Source of the DNA: Eledone cirrhosa
Taxonomy: Eukaryota
DNA length: 64,000 nucleotides
Reading direction: 5' to 3'
Assembly: GCA_964016885.1 (NCBI GenBank)
Contig: OZ024742.1
Location: 54,064,001-54,128,000, forward strand
Of this stretch, positions 5,737 through 61,206 are shown piece by piece (position 1 is the first letter of the stretch; the number at the start of each line of letters is the position of its first letter). Both the position numbers and the translations under genes were made by a program. The notes beneath the pieces are model-generated. The model searched no databases, had not been told where the DNA came from, and saw only the letters and a program-made list of their open reading frames with translations.

Positions 5737-5740
<4 letters not shown>

Positions 5741-6655
5741 TTTTAATTATATCTCATAAAATAATACAACTGGCTTTCCACAAAATACATATAGTTAGCA
5801 CCCCAAACACAAAATTAGGATTATACTAACGTATACCCTAATGTTTGTTGAGTGAGATGGTTACCAGTCAGAGTTTAGCTTAAAGCTTTCTCTGTTATGG
5901 TATTAAATATTTTACTCTTGATTTGGCCAGAGAATTTTATTTCCAGATACTTTTTAAACGTAACTTTCCGTATTTATTACTGTTATGAGATATTGTTTGT
6001 TATCTAGGTATCACTTCTCTGTTTTTAGCCTAAGAAAATATCTATATGCGTGTGTAATTAATACATGCATACATTTACTTTTTTAAAAATAATTAATAGA
6101 GTTCTTAACACGCAGGATTGATAATGGTTTTGAAAAAAACTAATTAACCCACGTGTATATTATTTTACTTTTCTTGTGACTCGCGATTGCCTCCCTTTTC
6201 CACTTCGTGACGCTATAATATTTCCTCAGTCTAAAGACTGCTGGAATTTCAAATTTCGCGGTCATTTGATGCGTGAGGGGACGATTTAGCGGACACGAAA
6301 AATAACTGCGGTAAGAAATTTTTTCTTATATCAAAGTTTAATGGGCATCCACTGATGATTTATAAGTGCCCACCTACATATATTCTTACAGAAAAAAATA
6401 TGTTAGGCTTCTACATAAACTGGAAACATTCTCCCAACTTGTAGAAAACTTATAATGAAACAATTGTTTGGAAAGAGAGATATATTTTAATTTTAATTAT
6501 ATCTCATATAAAATAATACAACTGGCTTTCCACAAAATACATATAGTTAGCACCCCAAACACAAAATTGGGATTATACTAACGTATACCCTAATGTTTGT
6601 TGAGTGAGATGGTTACCAGTCAGAGTTTAGCTTAAAGATTTCTCTGTTATTGTAT

Positions 6656-6660
<5 letters not shown>
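5737..6660 (+). mobile_element. Non-coding ~752-nt HHR unit with ~175-nt terminal direct repeat, TA-flanked
   Basis: 5737-5910 is repeated at 6487-6660; HHR at 6348-6472; homolog at 58385-58920 (minus). Confidence 0.8.
6348..6472 (+). ncRNA. Type I hammerhead ribozyme with greatly extended stem II
   Basis: tcca-CTGATGA-T-TTATAAG...CTTATAA-T-GAAA-CAATTG-TT-tgga. Confidence 0.72.
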
Positions 6661-6736
<76 letters not shown>

Positions 6737-12369: not shown

Positions 12370-13523
<1,154 letters not shown>

Positions 13524-34518: not shown

Positions 34519-34554
34519 TCTTCTGATGAAGGACTAGCGTCCGAAACGTTAAGA
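34519..34554 (+). ncRNA. Minimal hammerhead ribozyme in PLE 3' fragment 34420-34630
   Basis: tctt-CTGATGA-A-GGAC-TAGC-GTCC-GAAAC-GTT-aaga. Confidence 0.8.
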
Positions 34555-36371: not shown

Positions 36372-37785
36372 AAGAATCAAAAAGAACAGAAAGATGCAGT
36401 GAAAGAGATTTATTCGGTTCTAACGTACGTTTCAATAGACATCAATTTGCCTAGATCTCGCTGCATCTATAATATTATATAGTTAGTAGAGCATTCGACA
36501 TCCAATGCACAATCAATTCCATATCATCAGAGTTTATGTTTACCGCACCAGAATGTTCAGGTTTTTATAGGAATTCATGTGAAGTTGAAGTAAACCCTCC
36601 TGCAGCAGACACACATATAAACCTAACGCAACCTGTACAAGATAATAATACTACAAGAGCTGATAAGTGCAACTGCAACCTACCTGATCGTTGACCTCTG
36701 AATAACAAATGCATGGAATCCAATATGGTGTATCAATGCACCGTTGAATCGGATAACCGGAGATGGCACTATATCGGATGTACCTCTACCGCTTTTAAAT
36801 CTCGTTGGTACCAACACCGTAGTTCGATGAAGAACATCAAATACCGTTCCGTAACTACCTTAGCCAATACAATTTGGCAGTTGCGCGAAAGTAACCTGCA
36901 ATACACTTTGAAATGGACAAAATTCTCTAGTGCTTCCGCATATCGTGCAGGCCAGTCTTACTGCCGATTATGCAATATGGAGCTATTTTACATACTAAAA
37001 TCGAATTATACTCTCCTCAACAACAGAACGGAAAGGACTCTATATTGCAATCACAGACTCAAGACTACGTTCTCGAAATACAAACCTGGCTTGATTTGAT
37101 CCTGCGACTTCTGCTTTCCTCTATCTTCCTTCTACCTCCTCTATCTGTCCCCATGGATTATTGCTATGCCTTCTATTGACCACATCTCCCCTATTCAACA
37201 TCTCCTCCTACATACTTTACAAGTCACTCGGCCTAATCTCCCCTGCCTCCATCTATCATAGATCATAAACCTATCAACGTCTACCATCTCCCTAGCACAC
37301 ACACAGTTGGACTAGTCCATATCTAGACTTCATTATCGTATTTTATCCTCCTCTCTGTTTTACCTCAACAACCATGAAAAACCCCCCTATCTCTCTCGTC
37401 TTTGTCACATCCCCCTTCTTCTCTACTTCAACTTCACATGAATTCCTATAAAAACCTGAACATTCTGGTGCGGTAAACATAATCTCTGATGATATGGAAT
37501 TGATTGTGCATTGGATGTCGAATGCTCTACTAACTATATATTATAGATGCAGCGAGATCTAGGCAAATTGATGTCTATTGAAACGTATGTTAGAACCGAA
37601 TAAATCTCTTTTACTGCATCTTTCTGTTCTTTTTGATTCTTTATACACGCCCCGGAGTATAGCTAAACTGGAATATACACCTATTTTCTGCATTTCGTTG
37701 AGCATCACTCTGTTGTAAGCTGACCTTCCCCTACACGGTACATAACACTGTGTCCTGGAAAACCTTAATGCACTCGTGCATAACC

Positions 37786-37790
<5 letters not shown>
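36372..37790 (+). mobile_element. 5'-truncated CxCx5C-type PLE with inverted pLTR
   Basis: CNCNLPDR*PLNNKCMESNMVYQC..HYIGCTSTAFKSRWYQH..CRLC..CNHR (stop at 37099). 36372-36590 is the reverse complement of ~37425-37641. Confidence 0.92.
37483..37594 (+). ncRNA. Hammerhead with ~85-nt stem II domain
   Basis: tct-CTGATGA-T-ATGGA...TCTAT-T-GAAA-CGTATG-TT-aga; the inverted copy has the palindromic CGTACG. Confidence 0.65.
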
Positions 37791-40186: not shown

Positions 40187-40210
40187 TATATATATATATA
40201 GAGAGAGAAA

Positions 40211-41042
40211 GAATAGAATTGGCTGTGTAGTTGCTATTTAAGGAAACTTAAAATGCAGTGGAAATACGAAGAAAGCAAGAACAGGGGTGGGGGTGGGGGA
40301 GTTTTCCTCATCAATTGTCTACTGGGGGTCTCGGATATTTCTACACTTTAAAGACAAGATACCTCACCTCAGGGCGTCAATAACTGGATAAATTACTGGG
40401 AAAACGAAGGAAGAAGGGAAGGAAAGCTAAGGGGAAGAAAAGAGAAAACAGTAACAAAACAGCGAAAAAACACAACGAACCGAGCAATGTGCGAGCAACT
40501 ATAGGTAGGAAATCCAAGACCACTCGATAAAAGAACTTAATTTCAAGACTGAATGGTCGAGAGGAACAAGACACACGTCCGGTCGCCGCAGTTGTAAGTG
40601 AGAAGAGAACTGCTAAACGGTCAGGCGAGGGGTAAAAGTGAGAGGGAGAAAGGGAGAGGAAGAAAGTCGGGTAAGAGTAGATAGGGAGAAAAAGAGCGGA
40701 AGAAAGAGGGTTGAGAGCAGAAAGTGGCGAAATAGGTAGGCGGAAGGGGAGAGAAGATTAATCACAGAGAAAAACATGATGAAATATATGGAGAATAGAA
40801 ATGGCTGTGTAGTTGCTATTTAAGGTAACTTACAATGCAGTGGGAATACGAAGAAAGCAAGAACGGGGGGGGGGGGGGAAGCTTTCCTCATCAATTGTCT
40901 ACTGGGGATCTCGGATATTTCTACGCTTTAAAGACAAGATGCCTCACCCTAGGGCGTCAATAACTGGATAAGTTATTGGGAAAACGAAGGAAGGAGGGAA
41001 GGAAAGCAAAGAGGAAGAAAAGAGAAAACAGTAGCAAAAGAG

Positions 41043-42070: not shown

Positions 42071-42072
<2 letters not shown>

Positions 42073-42639
42073 CGGTAAATGTAACCATAGTGAGTACAGT
42101 GAATTTTTTGAAATTTATTTTGAAACTTTATCTTATTTGCTAAACCTTGATTATTTATGTTCTGGCTCGTTAATTTATTAACTAGACATTGAACCACATT
42201 GGCATATGGTTGGACAATATAAGTGTCCCTGGACGCTTTTTGCGTGTAAGATATATACTTTATTATTATTATACTCCTCTTGGTCGAGATAAGATTTGGT
42301 CGTTTTGACTGCTGCTATTTATAGTGGTAGTAGACTGACCTCCCTGCCTCTGCTTCTATCTTTACACACGGCACTGGACAGAATTGCTTCCACATCATTC
42401 ATTCTCATCTCGGGAACAATTTTGAATAGCGCCAATTCGTAATTTGAACTCGGGAATTTTATATTCTCCGAGTGAAAAGAACCTTCTGACGAGAGTTTAT
42501 CTTTAAAATAGAAGGCCGCAAGGACTGTCCATTTATTTTTGAGACTCAAAACCGATTCGGTAAAGGTAACCATAGTGAGTAGAGTGAATCTTTTGAAATT
42601 GATTTTGAAACTTTTTCTTATTTGCTAAACCTTGATTAT
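42071..42639 (+). mobile_element. Non-coding 485-nt HHR unit with 84-nt terminal direct repeat, TA-flanked
   Basis: 42071-42154 is repeated at 42556-42639. HHR at 42481-42567: acctt-CTGACGA-GAGTTT..AGACTC-AAAA-CCG-att-CGG-TA-aaggt. Confidence 0.82.
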
Positions 42640-42653
42640 ATATATATATATAT

Positions 42654-56133: not shown

Positions 56134-57158
56134 ATGTGTATATATGTGCATATATATATATGTATGAGTATATATATATATATATATTATTTTTATATTC
56201 TTTTAATTTCCCCTCATCTTTAACAGCACTTTTCAACTGCATCTAACTCTTATTTATCATATCTATATGTATTAGTATAATTTTATCTATATAAATATAC
56301 CCATCAATTAAATTAATTTCATATTCTTTTCATAGATATATTTTTTTCATTAACATTCTTATCTTAAAACTTTAGTCACCTTAGATATTTGTATTGGCAT
56401 TACTATTTTATAACAGCAACTGCTTGTATTACCTTTTACTGACCACCTGACCTATTTTCACCCCTAAAATAAGCTTCAATTACTACTATTTTTCCATTTG
56501 GCCAATTATTAACTTTCTATTGGTTAATTCTAAACCTCTTACCAAATAGACAGAATATATTAGATCTTTGTTGGTTTTATTCAATGAAAAAATAAAATTA
56601 TTTCTGAGGTCAGCATAAGACCTATTTCTTCCCTAAAATAATCCTTCATTCATAATATTCTTTTCCATCCAAAACTGAAATCTACTTTCCTCTACCCATA
56701 ATTTAAGGTTCTTCTACTACTATATTACTATCCTGACCCTCACTATCTTTCTATTGGTCAATTCAAAACCTGTTCCCAAACAGACCTATTGTATTGAATC
56801 TTTGTTTTTTTCAATAAACAAATATCATTTATTCTGAAGACAACATATATATGTGTAGGTATGTATATTCCCTCTGATAGTTTGTATAAATATTGTACAT
56901 AGATCTATAGAATATGCATACCAACTCTAACACATATATATCCTAGAAACGATCGTAAAATGATGAATTTTTTTAATATAAGGAACTGTTTCTTTGTTTA
57001 TTCATTATTTTATTAATTTAATTTGACTCTGTTTTCCGTTTATTTTTCACCGAAAGTAGTTTTTGTATGCATGTTCTCTTTTCATGATATCCGGATTACA
57101 TTGAGTTCTTCATTCGGATTGGACACTACCGTAAACTTTTGGTAGATTTATCTATCTA

Positions 57159-57199
<41 letters not shown>

Positions 57200-57263
57200 A
57201 TATACGGATTGGACACTACCGTAAACTTTTGGTAGATTTATCTATATATATATATATATATAT

Positions 57264-58029
57264 AATTAAGTTAAAAGTGTACATCCACATATGTATACTG
57301 AAATACTAGTATGCATATAAATACACACACGTATACATATGTACATGTACCGAGTTTTTCACATACAGACTAGCTGGACACTCACAGTAAAGTGTCCAGT
57401 GAAAAACTCGGTACATGTACATATGTATACGTGTGTGTATTTATATGCATACTAGTATTTCAGTATACATATGTGGATGTACACTTTTAACTTAATTGTT
57501 TAAGCGTCAGTCATACAAAAGTGAGTTACAAACGAAACGAAATTTAATTTCGTTTCGTTATTTGTTTTTATCGTTTCCGCTGAACCGGTGCGTACTCACG
57601 TTCTATGCAAATTAGTCTGCCCACTACTAATTTTCATAGAAAAAGCATATAACGATATGTGCTTTTATGATTCTCTAGAGAGGCCGGAAGATGGGTATAT
57701 ATTGCTGATGAGATGTAATAACATCGAAACTAGTCCAATATTCCTGTCTGGCTCTCTGGAGAATAGAGGAAAGGTGTTTCCTTGAAAACCAGTATGACTC
57801 TAAAAACCGGTTTGTCTGTTTGGTTACATACAGACTAGCTGGACACTCACAGTAAAGTGTCCAGTGAAAAACTCGGTACATGTACATATGTATACGTGTG
57901 TGTATTTATATGCATACTAGTATTTCAGTATACATATGTGGATGTACACTTTTAACTTAATTGTTTAAGCGTCAGTCATACAAAAGTGAGTTACAAACGA
58001 AACGAAATTTAATTTCGTTTCGTTATTTG

Positions 58030-58035
<6 letters not shown>
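57264..58035 (+). mobile_element. Retrozyme-like element: 465-nt unit x1.45 plus 97-nt 5' inversion, TA-flanked
   Basis: 57361-57570 = 57826-58035; 57264-57360 is the reverse complement of 57401-57497; HHR inside. Confidence 0.88.
57699..57741 (+). ncRNA. Canonical minimal type I hammerhead ribozyme
   Basis: atattg-CTGATGA-GATGT-aata-ACATC-GAAA-CTAG-TC-caatat; perfect stems I and II, palindromic stem III, GUC site. Confidence 0.9.
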
Positions 58036-58112
<77 letters not shown>

Positions 58113-58116
<4 letters not shown>

Positions 58117-59021: not shown

Positions 59022-59494
59022 AAAATGTCCAAGACCCCGGGGTCTTGAATATTTACCTATTACCCATTCTCATTTTCCTATTACCCATTCTACCCTAAGT
59101 ATTGAGTACTCTGGTGCGTTATGGTCCATCTGGTTCCTTACCACTCTTCCTCCGTTATATATGTATATAAATGTCTAAAAATATTGATAACCAGGAGATG
59201 AAGGGGGCCCCACCTACATAAAATGATTTCAACTTGTACAAAAATCCCTAGAGATCTAATTGACATTATATACATATATATATATGTGTGTGTGTGTGTG
59301 TGTATCCATATACATATGTATATGTATGTATATGTATTGGTACACATATATATGTATATGTATGTATATGTATAGGTACATGGAGTTGCGACCGATAGAT
59401 AGTATTAGCAATTGGAACGAACAATGGAAGCATCGTTTCTCCGGTTCGATTAGACGAAAGTCGATCGACTAAGAAGATATATATTGATGTGTGT

Positions 59495-59509
59495 ATCTAT
59501 CTATGTATG

Positions 59510-59584
<75 letters not shown>

Positions 59585-59604
59585 TTATCTATCTATCTAT
59601 GTAT
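59495..59604. repeat. (CTAT)n microsatellite
   Basis: Direct reading. Confidence 0.95.
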
Positions 59605-60953
59605 TTACTACCGCCTGACCGTAGTGCCCTGCCCAAGGGAAACCCTCACCAAGATGGAGCGCGCGCTCTTCCAATTCCTTTGGAAGAGGCGGGCTCCTAT
59701 GGTGAGGAGATCCATCTGCTGTCAACACCCTTCGAAAGGAGGGCTGGGGATGCCGTGGCTAATGATGCGTAAACACGCATTAAGGCTACGGCACCTCTAC
59801 GTATTCCTCACCGGACAACCGGTGTGGGCCTCGTTTGTGAGACGAACCTTTCCCAGACTCGTCTCACTCACCGAGCTGCAATCCTGGGTCAAGCAAAGAC
59901 CGAGAAAACTGGGCGCCTGGCACACTGAGTGTGCCCAGGCGCTCACCGCCCTCTGGCAGGCGGATCCGGTTATCAGTGGAGACTCCACCGCAACATTCTA
60001 TAGAGGGCTGGTACGCAGCAGGTGCGACGACGCCCTCGGAGAAGCCCTAGACATGGAGGAGGACGAACTGGCCAGCCTGTTCGGTAGGACATTCAGCCCG
60101 GGACCTATGGACAACTTCCAGAAGTCCCTGGCCTGGCAGTGCTACCGAGGAGCTTTACCCGTTCGAGAAAGGCTCTACAGACACGGGCGCCCGGGTAGGG
60201 ACCCCGCCAAAAAGATCTGTCCCAGATGCGTGTGCGACGAGGAAACCGTTGCACACGCATTGGTACACTGCTCGGGCGTAGCCGATCTGTGGGGCTATGT
60301 CGAACAACTGCTGTCAAGGGTGGGACCGATCCGGTTGACCACCGAGTCTATTGTAATGATCAAGCCGCCTCCCCCCTTCAAAGATGAAGCAGAGGCGGTG
60401 TTTCTGTGCGTAATAGCCATGGCGAAAGAGGTTGTATGGTGGACGCGTCTGAAAGGACTGAGGTCAGGCACCTTTCTCTCTGGCCAACAACTGGTCCGTT
60501 TCTTCCGATATCATTTCGGAAGAAGGATCAGGATGGAGAGAGAGGTGCTGCACCCCAGTCGTTTTTATGAACGGTGGGTGAAAGTGGCGAGAATGGCCCG
60601 TGTGAATGGGCCTTCTCTTTACATAAGCCTGTAGGTGGAAAAGAGGAAGGAACGAGGGAGCACCCCCTCTCTGTGCTCCTGAGGAAAAGGGTTGCACACT
60701 TTTTTCGGGGGTGTGTGCGACCCCCCAAGGCGCCTCCTCTCTATTGAGGATTTTGTTATAAATTTTATTTTTTGTTATATTTTATAACAAAATCCTCTAT
60801 TGAGGATTTTGTTATAATTCTATTTTTTGTTATATTTTATTTTATTTTTATATATTGTTATTGCCTCCTCCCTATTGAGGACGCCTTGTTTTGTAAACTC
60901 CCCCCATTGTACTTGTCCCACTTTTGATGCCCTTGTGGCAAATAAAAGAAACA
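59605..60953 (+). mobile_element. Tx1/L1-clade LINE 3' fragment with intact C-terminal ORF (zf-RVT)
   Basis: LFQFLWK..KGGLGMP..WQCYRGALPV..CPRC..EETVAHALVHC..LW; stop at 60634; aataaaagaaa end; GC-rich. Confidence 0.9.
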
Positions 60954-61151: not shown

Positions 61152-61206
61152 ACTGCTATATATATTTCGGTGACAGCCATCATTGACTGTGACCTCTTCA
61201 GGCAGT
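61152..61206 (-). ncRNA. Hammerhead ribozyme
   Basis: actgc-CTGAAGA-GGTCACAGTCA-atga-TGGCTGTCACC-GAAA-TATATA-TA-gcagt. Confidence 0.82.

Follow-up and report, generated by a model that had tools for sequence, protein, structure and literature searches.

A young non-coding retrozyme family of Eledone cirrhosa with Penelope-type insertion ends and features that suggest a circular, edited RNA template

The element described here is a young, non-coding animal non-LTR retrozyme of about 465 nt. Judged from the genomic sequences of its copies, it is probably inserted into (TA)n by a Penelope-type enzyme with reverse transcriptase (RT) and GIY-YIG domains, and the template would be a circular, sometimes ADAR-edited monomer RNA. 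The copy on which the description is based lies at 57264-58036 in a stretch of 64,000 nt of Eledone cirrhosa DNA (positions 54,064,001 to 54,128,000 of contig OZ024742.1, assembly GCA_964016885.1), which is referred to as the window.

Results

Architecture of the window copy

The element is embedded in (TA)n, which extends from 57244 to 57263 on the left and from 58034 to 58113 on the right (no strand assigned). Its left part (57264-57362, minus strand) is an inverted arm that corresponds to unit positions 39-137 and is a 100% reverse complement of 57399-57497; the arm comprises 99 bp, or 97 bp if the 2-bp overlap at the junction is subtracted, and its outer end is the 'short' 3' end (S). It is followed on the plus strand by a full 465-bp unit with 36% GC (57361-57825) and by a second, partial unit (positions 1-211; 57826-58036), which terminates at the 'long' 3' end (L). 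The direct repeat formed by 57361-57571 and 57826-58036 has a length of 211 bp, a spacing of 465 and 100% identity. A 'tail' of ~74 nt extends from the S to the L site (57963-58036, plus strand); it is present at one end only and contains a 13-bp hairpin. The longest stop-free stretch in a dimer of the 465 unit is 86 aa, which marks the unit as non-coding. The ORF with RT and GIY-YIG that characterizes autonomous Penelope-like elements (PLEs) is absent from the 465 unit. No promoter was found, and the unit lacks an A-box or B-box consensus. Its RNA is predicted to be strongly structured (z of -9.5 for the fold of the rotated unit, compared with 100 shuffles). An earlier note, made from the letters of the window, had described a 210-nt direct repeat with period 465, a 97-nt 5' inversion, TA on both sides and no coding similarity, all of which agrees with these findings. 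Just left of the element, a 37-bp local duplication (57112-57148 and 57202-57238) surrounds a (TA)n tract, and a 411-aa stop-free frame at 59399-60634 resembles the C-terminal part of a non-LTR retrotransposon.

The unit carries a predicted type I hammerhead ribozyme (HHR) with extended stem I (57686-57758, plus strand). The core CTGATGA occupies 57705-57711, stem II 57712-57725 and the palindromic stem III 57729-57734, with the predicted cut after C57735. Stem I has 6 bp and stem II 5 bp, stem III reads ACTAGT, and C17 of the GUC is at 57735. The best Rfam match was HH9 (E 8e-7, 32.9 bits, cut-off 52); at gathering score no Rfam match was obtained in the element, and with a custom descriptor none of 20 shuffled windows gave an equally good hammerhead. 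Stem III consists of a 2-bp stem and a 2-nt palindromic loop, a short palindromic form that is described as dimer-requiring in the relevant part of PMC4209133. The hammerhead, previously called 'perfect', thus has all the textbook stems, the core and the GUC, but with its 2-bp stem III of the dimer form it is not perfect as a monomer. Only one hammerhead lies within 57264-58036, whereas Li et al. count copies with at least two as 'active'; having a single ribozyme, the window copy could not by itself release a monomer via two self-cleavages. Among 121 haplotypes of the family the hammerhead core is nearly invariant, its mean variation (0.002) being about 20-fold less than that of the rest of the unit (0.041), and in stem II a compensatory A-T/T-A swap distinguishes subfamilies.

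Size and age of the family

A search of the 3.0-Gb genome with a 33-nt ribozyme core yielded 1,449 exact matches, and 9,286 with a degenerate version, numbers that count ribozymes, many of them within arrays; the reversed controls gave 0. A single-copy locus, which would have spoken against a mobile family, is incompatible with these counts. Loci were chosen by similarity to the unit or the ribozyme and represent a non-random sample, the best-scoring among thousands of copies. The unit measures 465-471 bp across the family, with 36% GC, and 78 of the 126 sampled insertions contain at least two hammerheads. The window copy and the copy at L072 differ at 0 of 400 sites, and in another subfamily 100%-identical arrays of 7-20 units are found on three chromosomes (C1, C6 and C18), both of which indicate recent activity. 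With thousands of near-identical dispersed copies and with identical arrays, the family is the young, multi-copy retroelement with tandem arrays that had been proposed.

An array of at least 60 kb with ~128 units begins, at an S end, at G000:C1:95620986 (L061-L064, L134-L136). Several arrays look as if they were formed at insertion. An identical 20-unit array at C1:30.83 Mb had been considered as a private haplotype; since it belongs to the 100%-identical subfamily, it was left out as evidence for a circle. An abundant sister retrozyme family (L048:3569-4960; L131, L132, L133, L162, L180, L181), ~65% identical to the first, has S and L ends that are homologous to those described here, and its stem II covaries.

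Other units in the window

The earlier note had grouped the 465-nt element with units of 485, 517, 582, 752 and 782 nt in one ribozyme 'system'. Most of these units are real: direct periods of 485, 582, ~750 and 782 were confirmed, and the 485-bp-period unit (42071-42643) lies near a hammerhead with a mutated GAAA, an intact homologue of which is present in L074. A 517 direct period was not found in the window, although the '517' region has a possible hammerhead. The proposed unity was only partly borne out: none of the other units is similar to the 465 unit, and in the 582, 752 and 782 units no canonical hammerhead was detected with descriptors, which rearranged forms would escape. The units at 5738-6662 (~750), 12559-13438 (782) and 40210-40975 (582), all in (TA)n, may contain rearranged hammerheads. 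Hammerhead-like motifs of other repeat families are located at 34523 and 45851 (plus strand) and at 61201 and 63378 (minus strand).

Insertion ends and targets

All of the 126 insertions analysed had their 3' end at S or at L, which are located 220-235 nt and 298-303 nt downstream of the ribozyme cut and ~70 nt apart. S was the end of 76 and L the end of 72 of 148 arms. When an insertion had two arms, one ended at S and the other at L in 78 of 79 cases; the exception (L283) had two S ends, and two L ends were never observed. The seemingly single-armed insertions L018, L024, L053, L262, L033, L197, L198 and L239 may possess a second arm of 7-11 nt with the opposite end type. TA-rich flanks adjoin 178 of 205 canonical ends, and target duplications, of ~12-16 bp, can be recognized at flanks that are not made up of TA only (L004, L039, L052, L195, L253). 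PLEs have inverted arms and a tail that is confined to one end (PMC8557442, in part), and the section of PMC11167929 on the PLE tail describes it as the stretch between two internal RT starts. Of these features of PLE-type insertion, an inverted truncated arm with a one-ended tail was found in 78 of the 79 two-armed insertions, and an AT-rich or microsatellite target with variable target duplication was also present. The (TA)n targeting and the Penelope-type ends claimed before are borne out by these numbers.

Coding Penelope-like elements and a chimeric insertion

Coding elements found in this work that combine RT, a C-x4-C-x2-C linker and GIY-YIG are of the Neptune type; in one of them (L168) 938 aa are stop-free. 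They show the S/L-tail arrangement in (TA)n, with tails of ~35-65 nt, and include a young family with a near-intact ORF (L168, L169, L175, L178, L181). The pLTR of the L168 type can adopt a fold that resembles a hammerhead; its core is of the U3-A8 form, a probably active variant, and is missed by standard descriptors. The window also contains a 5'-truncated coding PLE (36372-37788, GIY-YIG-like frame 36695-37099), which has a 221-bp inverted arm and a ~147-nt tail and is situated in (TA)n.

The Neptune-type coding elements examined here share no sequence with the 465 unit, and no unit-like sequence or pLTR was found among ~100 PLE loci, a small share of the more than 10,000 GIY-YIG candidates. 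This search for a partner by homology covered 30 loci each of the Neptune and GIY-YIG sets, 20 loci with long ORFs and 19 relatives of the PLE arm of L038 (see below). L123 was rejected as a coding partner, because the apparent match was to an adjoining sister retrozyme.

The insertion L038 combines a retrozyme L arm with 2.4 kb of a 5'-truncated Neptune-type element in head-to-head orientation, and 45 nt of retrozyme sequence lacking a canonical end lie between the two parts. The PLE arm terminates at its own S site, and TA is found on both sides. Identity of the PLE arm to its relatives is 98-99%, and divergence between the retrozyme units amounts to 0.6%, values that make the ages of the two parts compatible. 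This single chimera points to the Neptune-type family as the putative partner enzyme; two neighbouring insertions combined with a deletion could mimic such a structure. Another candidate chimera, L196, was discarded as too old and without a clear end.

The element could also be viewed as the stump (pLTR and tail) of a coding Penelope element, or as a satellite spreading at the DNA level, with no independent mobile RNA. The truncated coding PLE of the window has a similar layout, the array of at least 60 kb would suit a satellite, and the restriction of the sample to the best-scoring copies leaves some room for this explanation. However, in none of 127 insertions did the unit continue as a pLTR into an ORF on the same strand, nor was it, as the earlier note had allowed, a sequence confined to the pLTRs of coding PLEs; PLE coding sequence occurred within 400 bp in 12 of the 127, as a neighbour or as the opposite arm. 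In addition, the 465 period continues without a break past the L site and into the following hammerhead, and dispersed copies are individually bounded by fixed ends and target duplications. Taking these observations together, the stump or satellite explanation is largely refuted, and we regard it as very improbable.

Template of copying

Both start sites lie inside the monomer, which means that in any arm containing the ribozyme, copying must have passed the cut site. In 47 of 148 arms the cut site was crossed at least twice, and the units adjoin at this site gapless in alignments. Among 55 shorter arms 3 had their 5' end at the cut site compared with 3.8 expected, i.e. there was no pile-up. 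An apparent stop at the cut site, where the first bin had held 26 arms, was due in part to an artefact at alignment edges (16 of 148 after re-alignment) and was not retained.

Private variants were classified in 121 insertions, leaving out five long arrays, duplicate loci and sites 4 nt or less from gaps. Variants present in every unit across turns numbered 55, and another 20 were present in both arms where one turn only was covered; 14 were partial, i.e. found in only some units, and 346 were single. Variants specific to a position (shared by both arms in one turn only) were observed once, against ~56 expected on the assumption that the donors were as heterogeneous as today's copies, i.e. old donors. 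A held-out set of 31 insertions had 0 such variants against 17.5 expected. Accordingly, a single unit haplotype is, as a rule, repeated throughout an insertion. A circular template would account for these one-haplotype insertions, and so would a jump on a linear monomer or young homogeneous donor arrays.

There were exceptions. A position-specific change was found at L007, and unit types recur in L031, L047 and the 5.7-Mb array; to account for these patterns, turnover at the DNA level or heterogeneous templates are required. The unit order at L047:3214-5390 is A-B-A-B-B, an alternation that suggests a dimeric template or duplication at the DNA level.

If the same Penelope-driven insertion used an uncleaved linear multimer transcribed from young homogeneous arrays, the hammerhead would be a passenger and a circle would not be needed. 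The 100%-identical arrays on C1, C6 and C18 could supply such homogeneous multimers, and the recurring unit types agree with them. Parts of the literature point in the same direction: with an Anolis PLE, HHR mutants still insert and unprocessed RNA is the main substrate in vitro (PMC11167929, insertion assays), and no cleavage was seen with 8 of 9 Xenopus dimers (bioRxiv 10.64898/2026.07.22.740005, results on dimers). Of these points, the identical arrays, the use of unprocessed RNA and the recurring unit types also count against a circle, as do the 14 partial variants and the change at L007. On the other side, many insertions have their own haplotype across all units and both arms, position-specific variants are rare (see above), an 11-site A>G cluster is repeated across tandem units at L030/L247, and the hammerhead core varies far less than the rest of the unit. 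We therefore consider a linear multimer an unlikely template.

The template could, alternatively, be a cleaved linear monomer, on which the RT, having reached the 5' end, would jump back to that molecule's own 3' end and thus make tandem copies without ligation. Such jumps account equally well for whole-unit inheritance and for repeated edit patterns, and genomic data cannot separate them from a circle. Yet arm ends are not in excess at the cut site, where the units adjoin without gaps, and circles are dominant in other animal retrozymes according to the RNA data of PMC7229834. A jumping RT seems somewhat less likely still than a linear multimer, and the circular monomer remains our preferred template.

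A>G changes that predate insertion

Changes common to the copies within an insertion predate that insertion. When counted on the ribozyme strand and on terminal branches under four rootings, 40 of 98-100 shared changes were A>G and 8 were T>C; the held-out loci gave 6 and 0. The excess persisted (25 vs. 8, p=0.0014) after removal of the two richest loci, and a tree-free count yielded 26 A>G and 8 T>C of 75 (Fisher p=0.0016 against singletons). The singletons, which arose after insertion, comprised 30 A>G and 40 T>C of 346. A first count (23 vs. 15, p=0.14) had been diluted by one divergent copy then without close relatives, and a count of 60 vs. 23, which included root-dependent internal branches, was not relied on.

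Recurrent A>G sites lie at positions 136, 335, 344 and 419, counted from the cut. The base on the 5' side was G at 2 of 26 shared and at 9 of 30 singleton (control) sites (p=0.047), and a depletion of preceding G is expected for ADAR (PMC5625713, section on editing context). At L030/L247, 11 private A>G changes are present in both full units, and 8 were recognized by eye in the third, partial unit. A strand-specific, clustered A>G excess with 5' G depletion, as would be left by an ADAR-edited template, is thus present, and on the basis of these patterns ADAR was quite probably the source. Some observations fit less well. The 3' neighbour of the shared sites was G in 10 and A in 4 of 26, unlike the preference for a downstream A given for invertebrate hyper-editing in the same section of PMC5625713. 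The sign test per insertion was weak (15 vs. 6, p=0.078), the bias on internal branches varies with the root, and there is an unexplained excess of G>A over C>T (18-19 vs. 5). The A>G bias might also stem from mutation coupled to transcription at the donor loci. Gene conversion was rejected because it would yield the singleton spectrum, as was selection for wobble pairs, which would favour C>T too, whereas C>T is rare (5).

Discussion

We propose the following life cycle. Copies with at least two units would be transcribed, paired hammerheads would excise the monomer, and the monomer would be ligated into a circle. A Neptune-type enzyme, probably dimeric, would nick both strands of (TA)n and prime once at L and once at S of one RNA. 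Each arm would then travel round the circle for a variable distance, until the two 5' ends are joined head to head. The window copy would have arisen in this way, one arm having made 1.45 turns and the other 0.2.

A more far-reaching version would regard the family as a currently active retrozyme that has recorded its whole cycle: ADAR edits of the circle would have been written into DNA turn after turn by a dimeric Neptune-type enzyme priming on both target strands at two fixed sites, editing would be a main source of heritable variation, and L038 would identify the enzyme family. We put this forward tentatively, giving it slightly less than an even chance.

As an element class the family is ordinary, and its copies are unusually informative: at the level of insertions, they provide evidence on which class of enzyme is used, for a template made of one unit and for the passage of RNA edits into germ-line DNA. 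The family also lends itself to experimental tests, since the RNA would be 465 nt long, both start sites are mapped, the target is (TA)n and young ORFs of the Neptune type are present. In the literature searched (main texts, few subscription papers) no paper was found that deals with the ends of retrozyme insertions, with traces of ADAR in the DNA of retrozymes or with retrozymes of cephalopods. The relevant part of PMC2873906 covers G-to-A traces of APOBEC.

By features of its sequence, namely a short tandem unit without coding capacity, low GC, a type I hammerhead in each unit and consecutive hammerheads, the family is a new member of the animal non-LTR retrozymes. It had been called probably undescribed; its kind has already been described (PMC7229834 and bioRxiv 10.64898/2026.07.22.740005, as far as their relevant sections go). 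A model combining hammerhead circles with Penelope enzymes was proposed in the former; the account of the model in the latter backs it phylogenetically and leaves the mechanism open. The retrozymes presented by Cervera and de la Pena (2020; PMC7229834, sections on animal genomes) likewise have tandem non-coding units with GC below 45%, one type I hammerhead per unit, copies from dimers to large multimers, strongly self-paired RNA and co-existing PLEs. Their units are shorter (~170-400 nt vs. 465-471 nt), and circles and cleavage were demonstrated there, whereas the present family is known from genomic sequence. In these sections rolling-circle copying and RNA editing are suggested only, the latter as a source of RNA heterogeneity and without demonstration.

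The vertebrate non-LTR retrozymes of Li, Clavereau and Pollet (bioRxiv 10.64898/2026.07.22.740005, in the sections used here) resemble the family in their units (51-972 bp), in occurring as monomers to multimers, in their PLE origin and in the association of activity with two hammerheads. The link to PLEs was established there via co-occurrence and pLTR homology, and here via the insertion signature and one chimera; arrays were ascribed there to local amplification, whereas several of those seen here look insertion-made. The four invertebrates covered in these sections include no mollusc.

Newts and PLEs have type I hammerheads that depend on dimers (PMC4209133, in part), and these share the short palindromic stem III. 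The predicted ribozyme has an extended stem I like that of Rfam HH9, and its score is under the HH9 gathering cut-off.

The closest parallel in insertion structure is with the PLEs, both the EN+ Neptune type (PMC8557442) and Poseidon PAc (PMC11167929), as portrayed in the sections on insertion structure. These elements also show an inverted truncated arm, a one-ended tail, two internal RT starts 3' of the hammerhead and AT-rich or microsatellite targets. The retrozyme differs from them in having no ORF and a longer tail (69-74 nt vs. 30-40 nt), and while no strand difference in start site was seen in the in vitro reactions of PMC11167929, the retrozyme pairs one S with one L end almost strictly.
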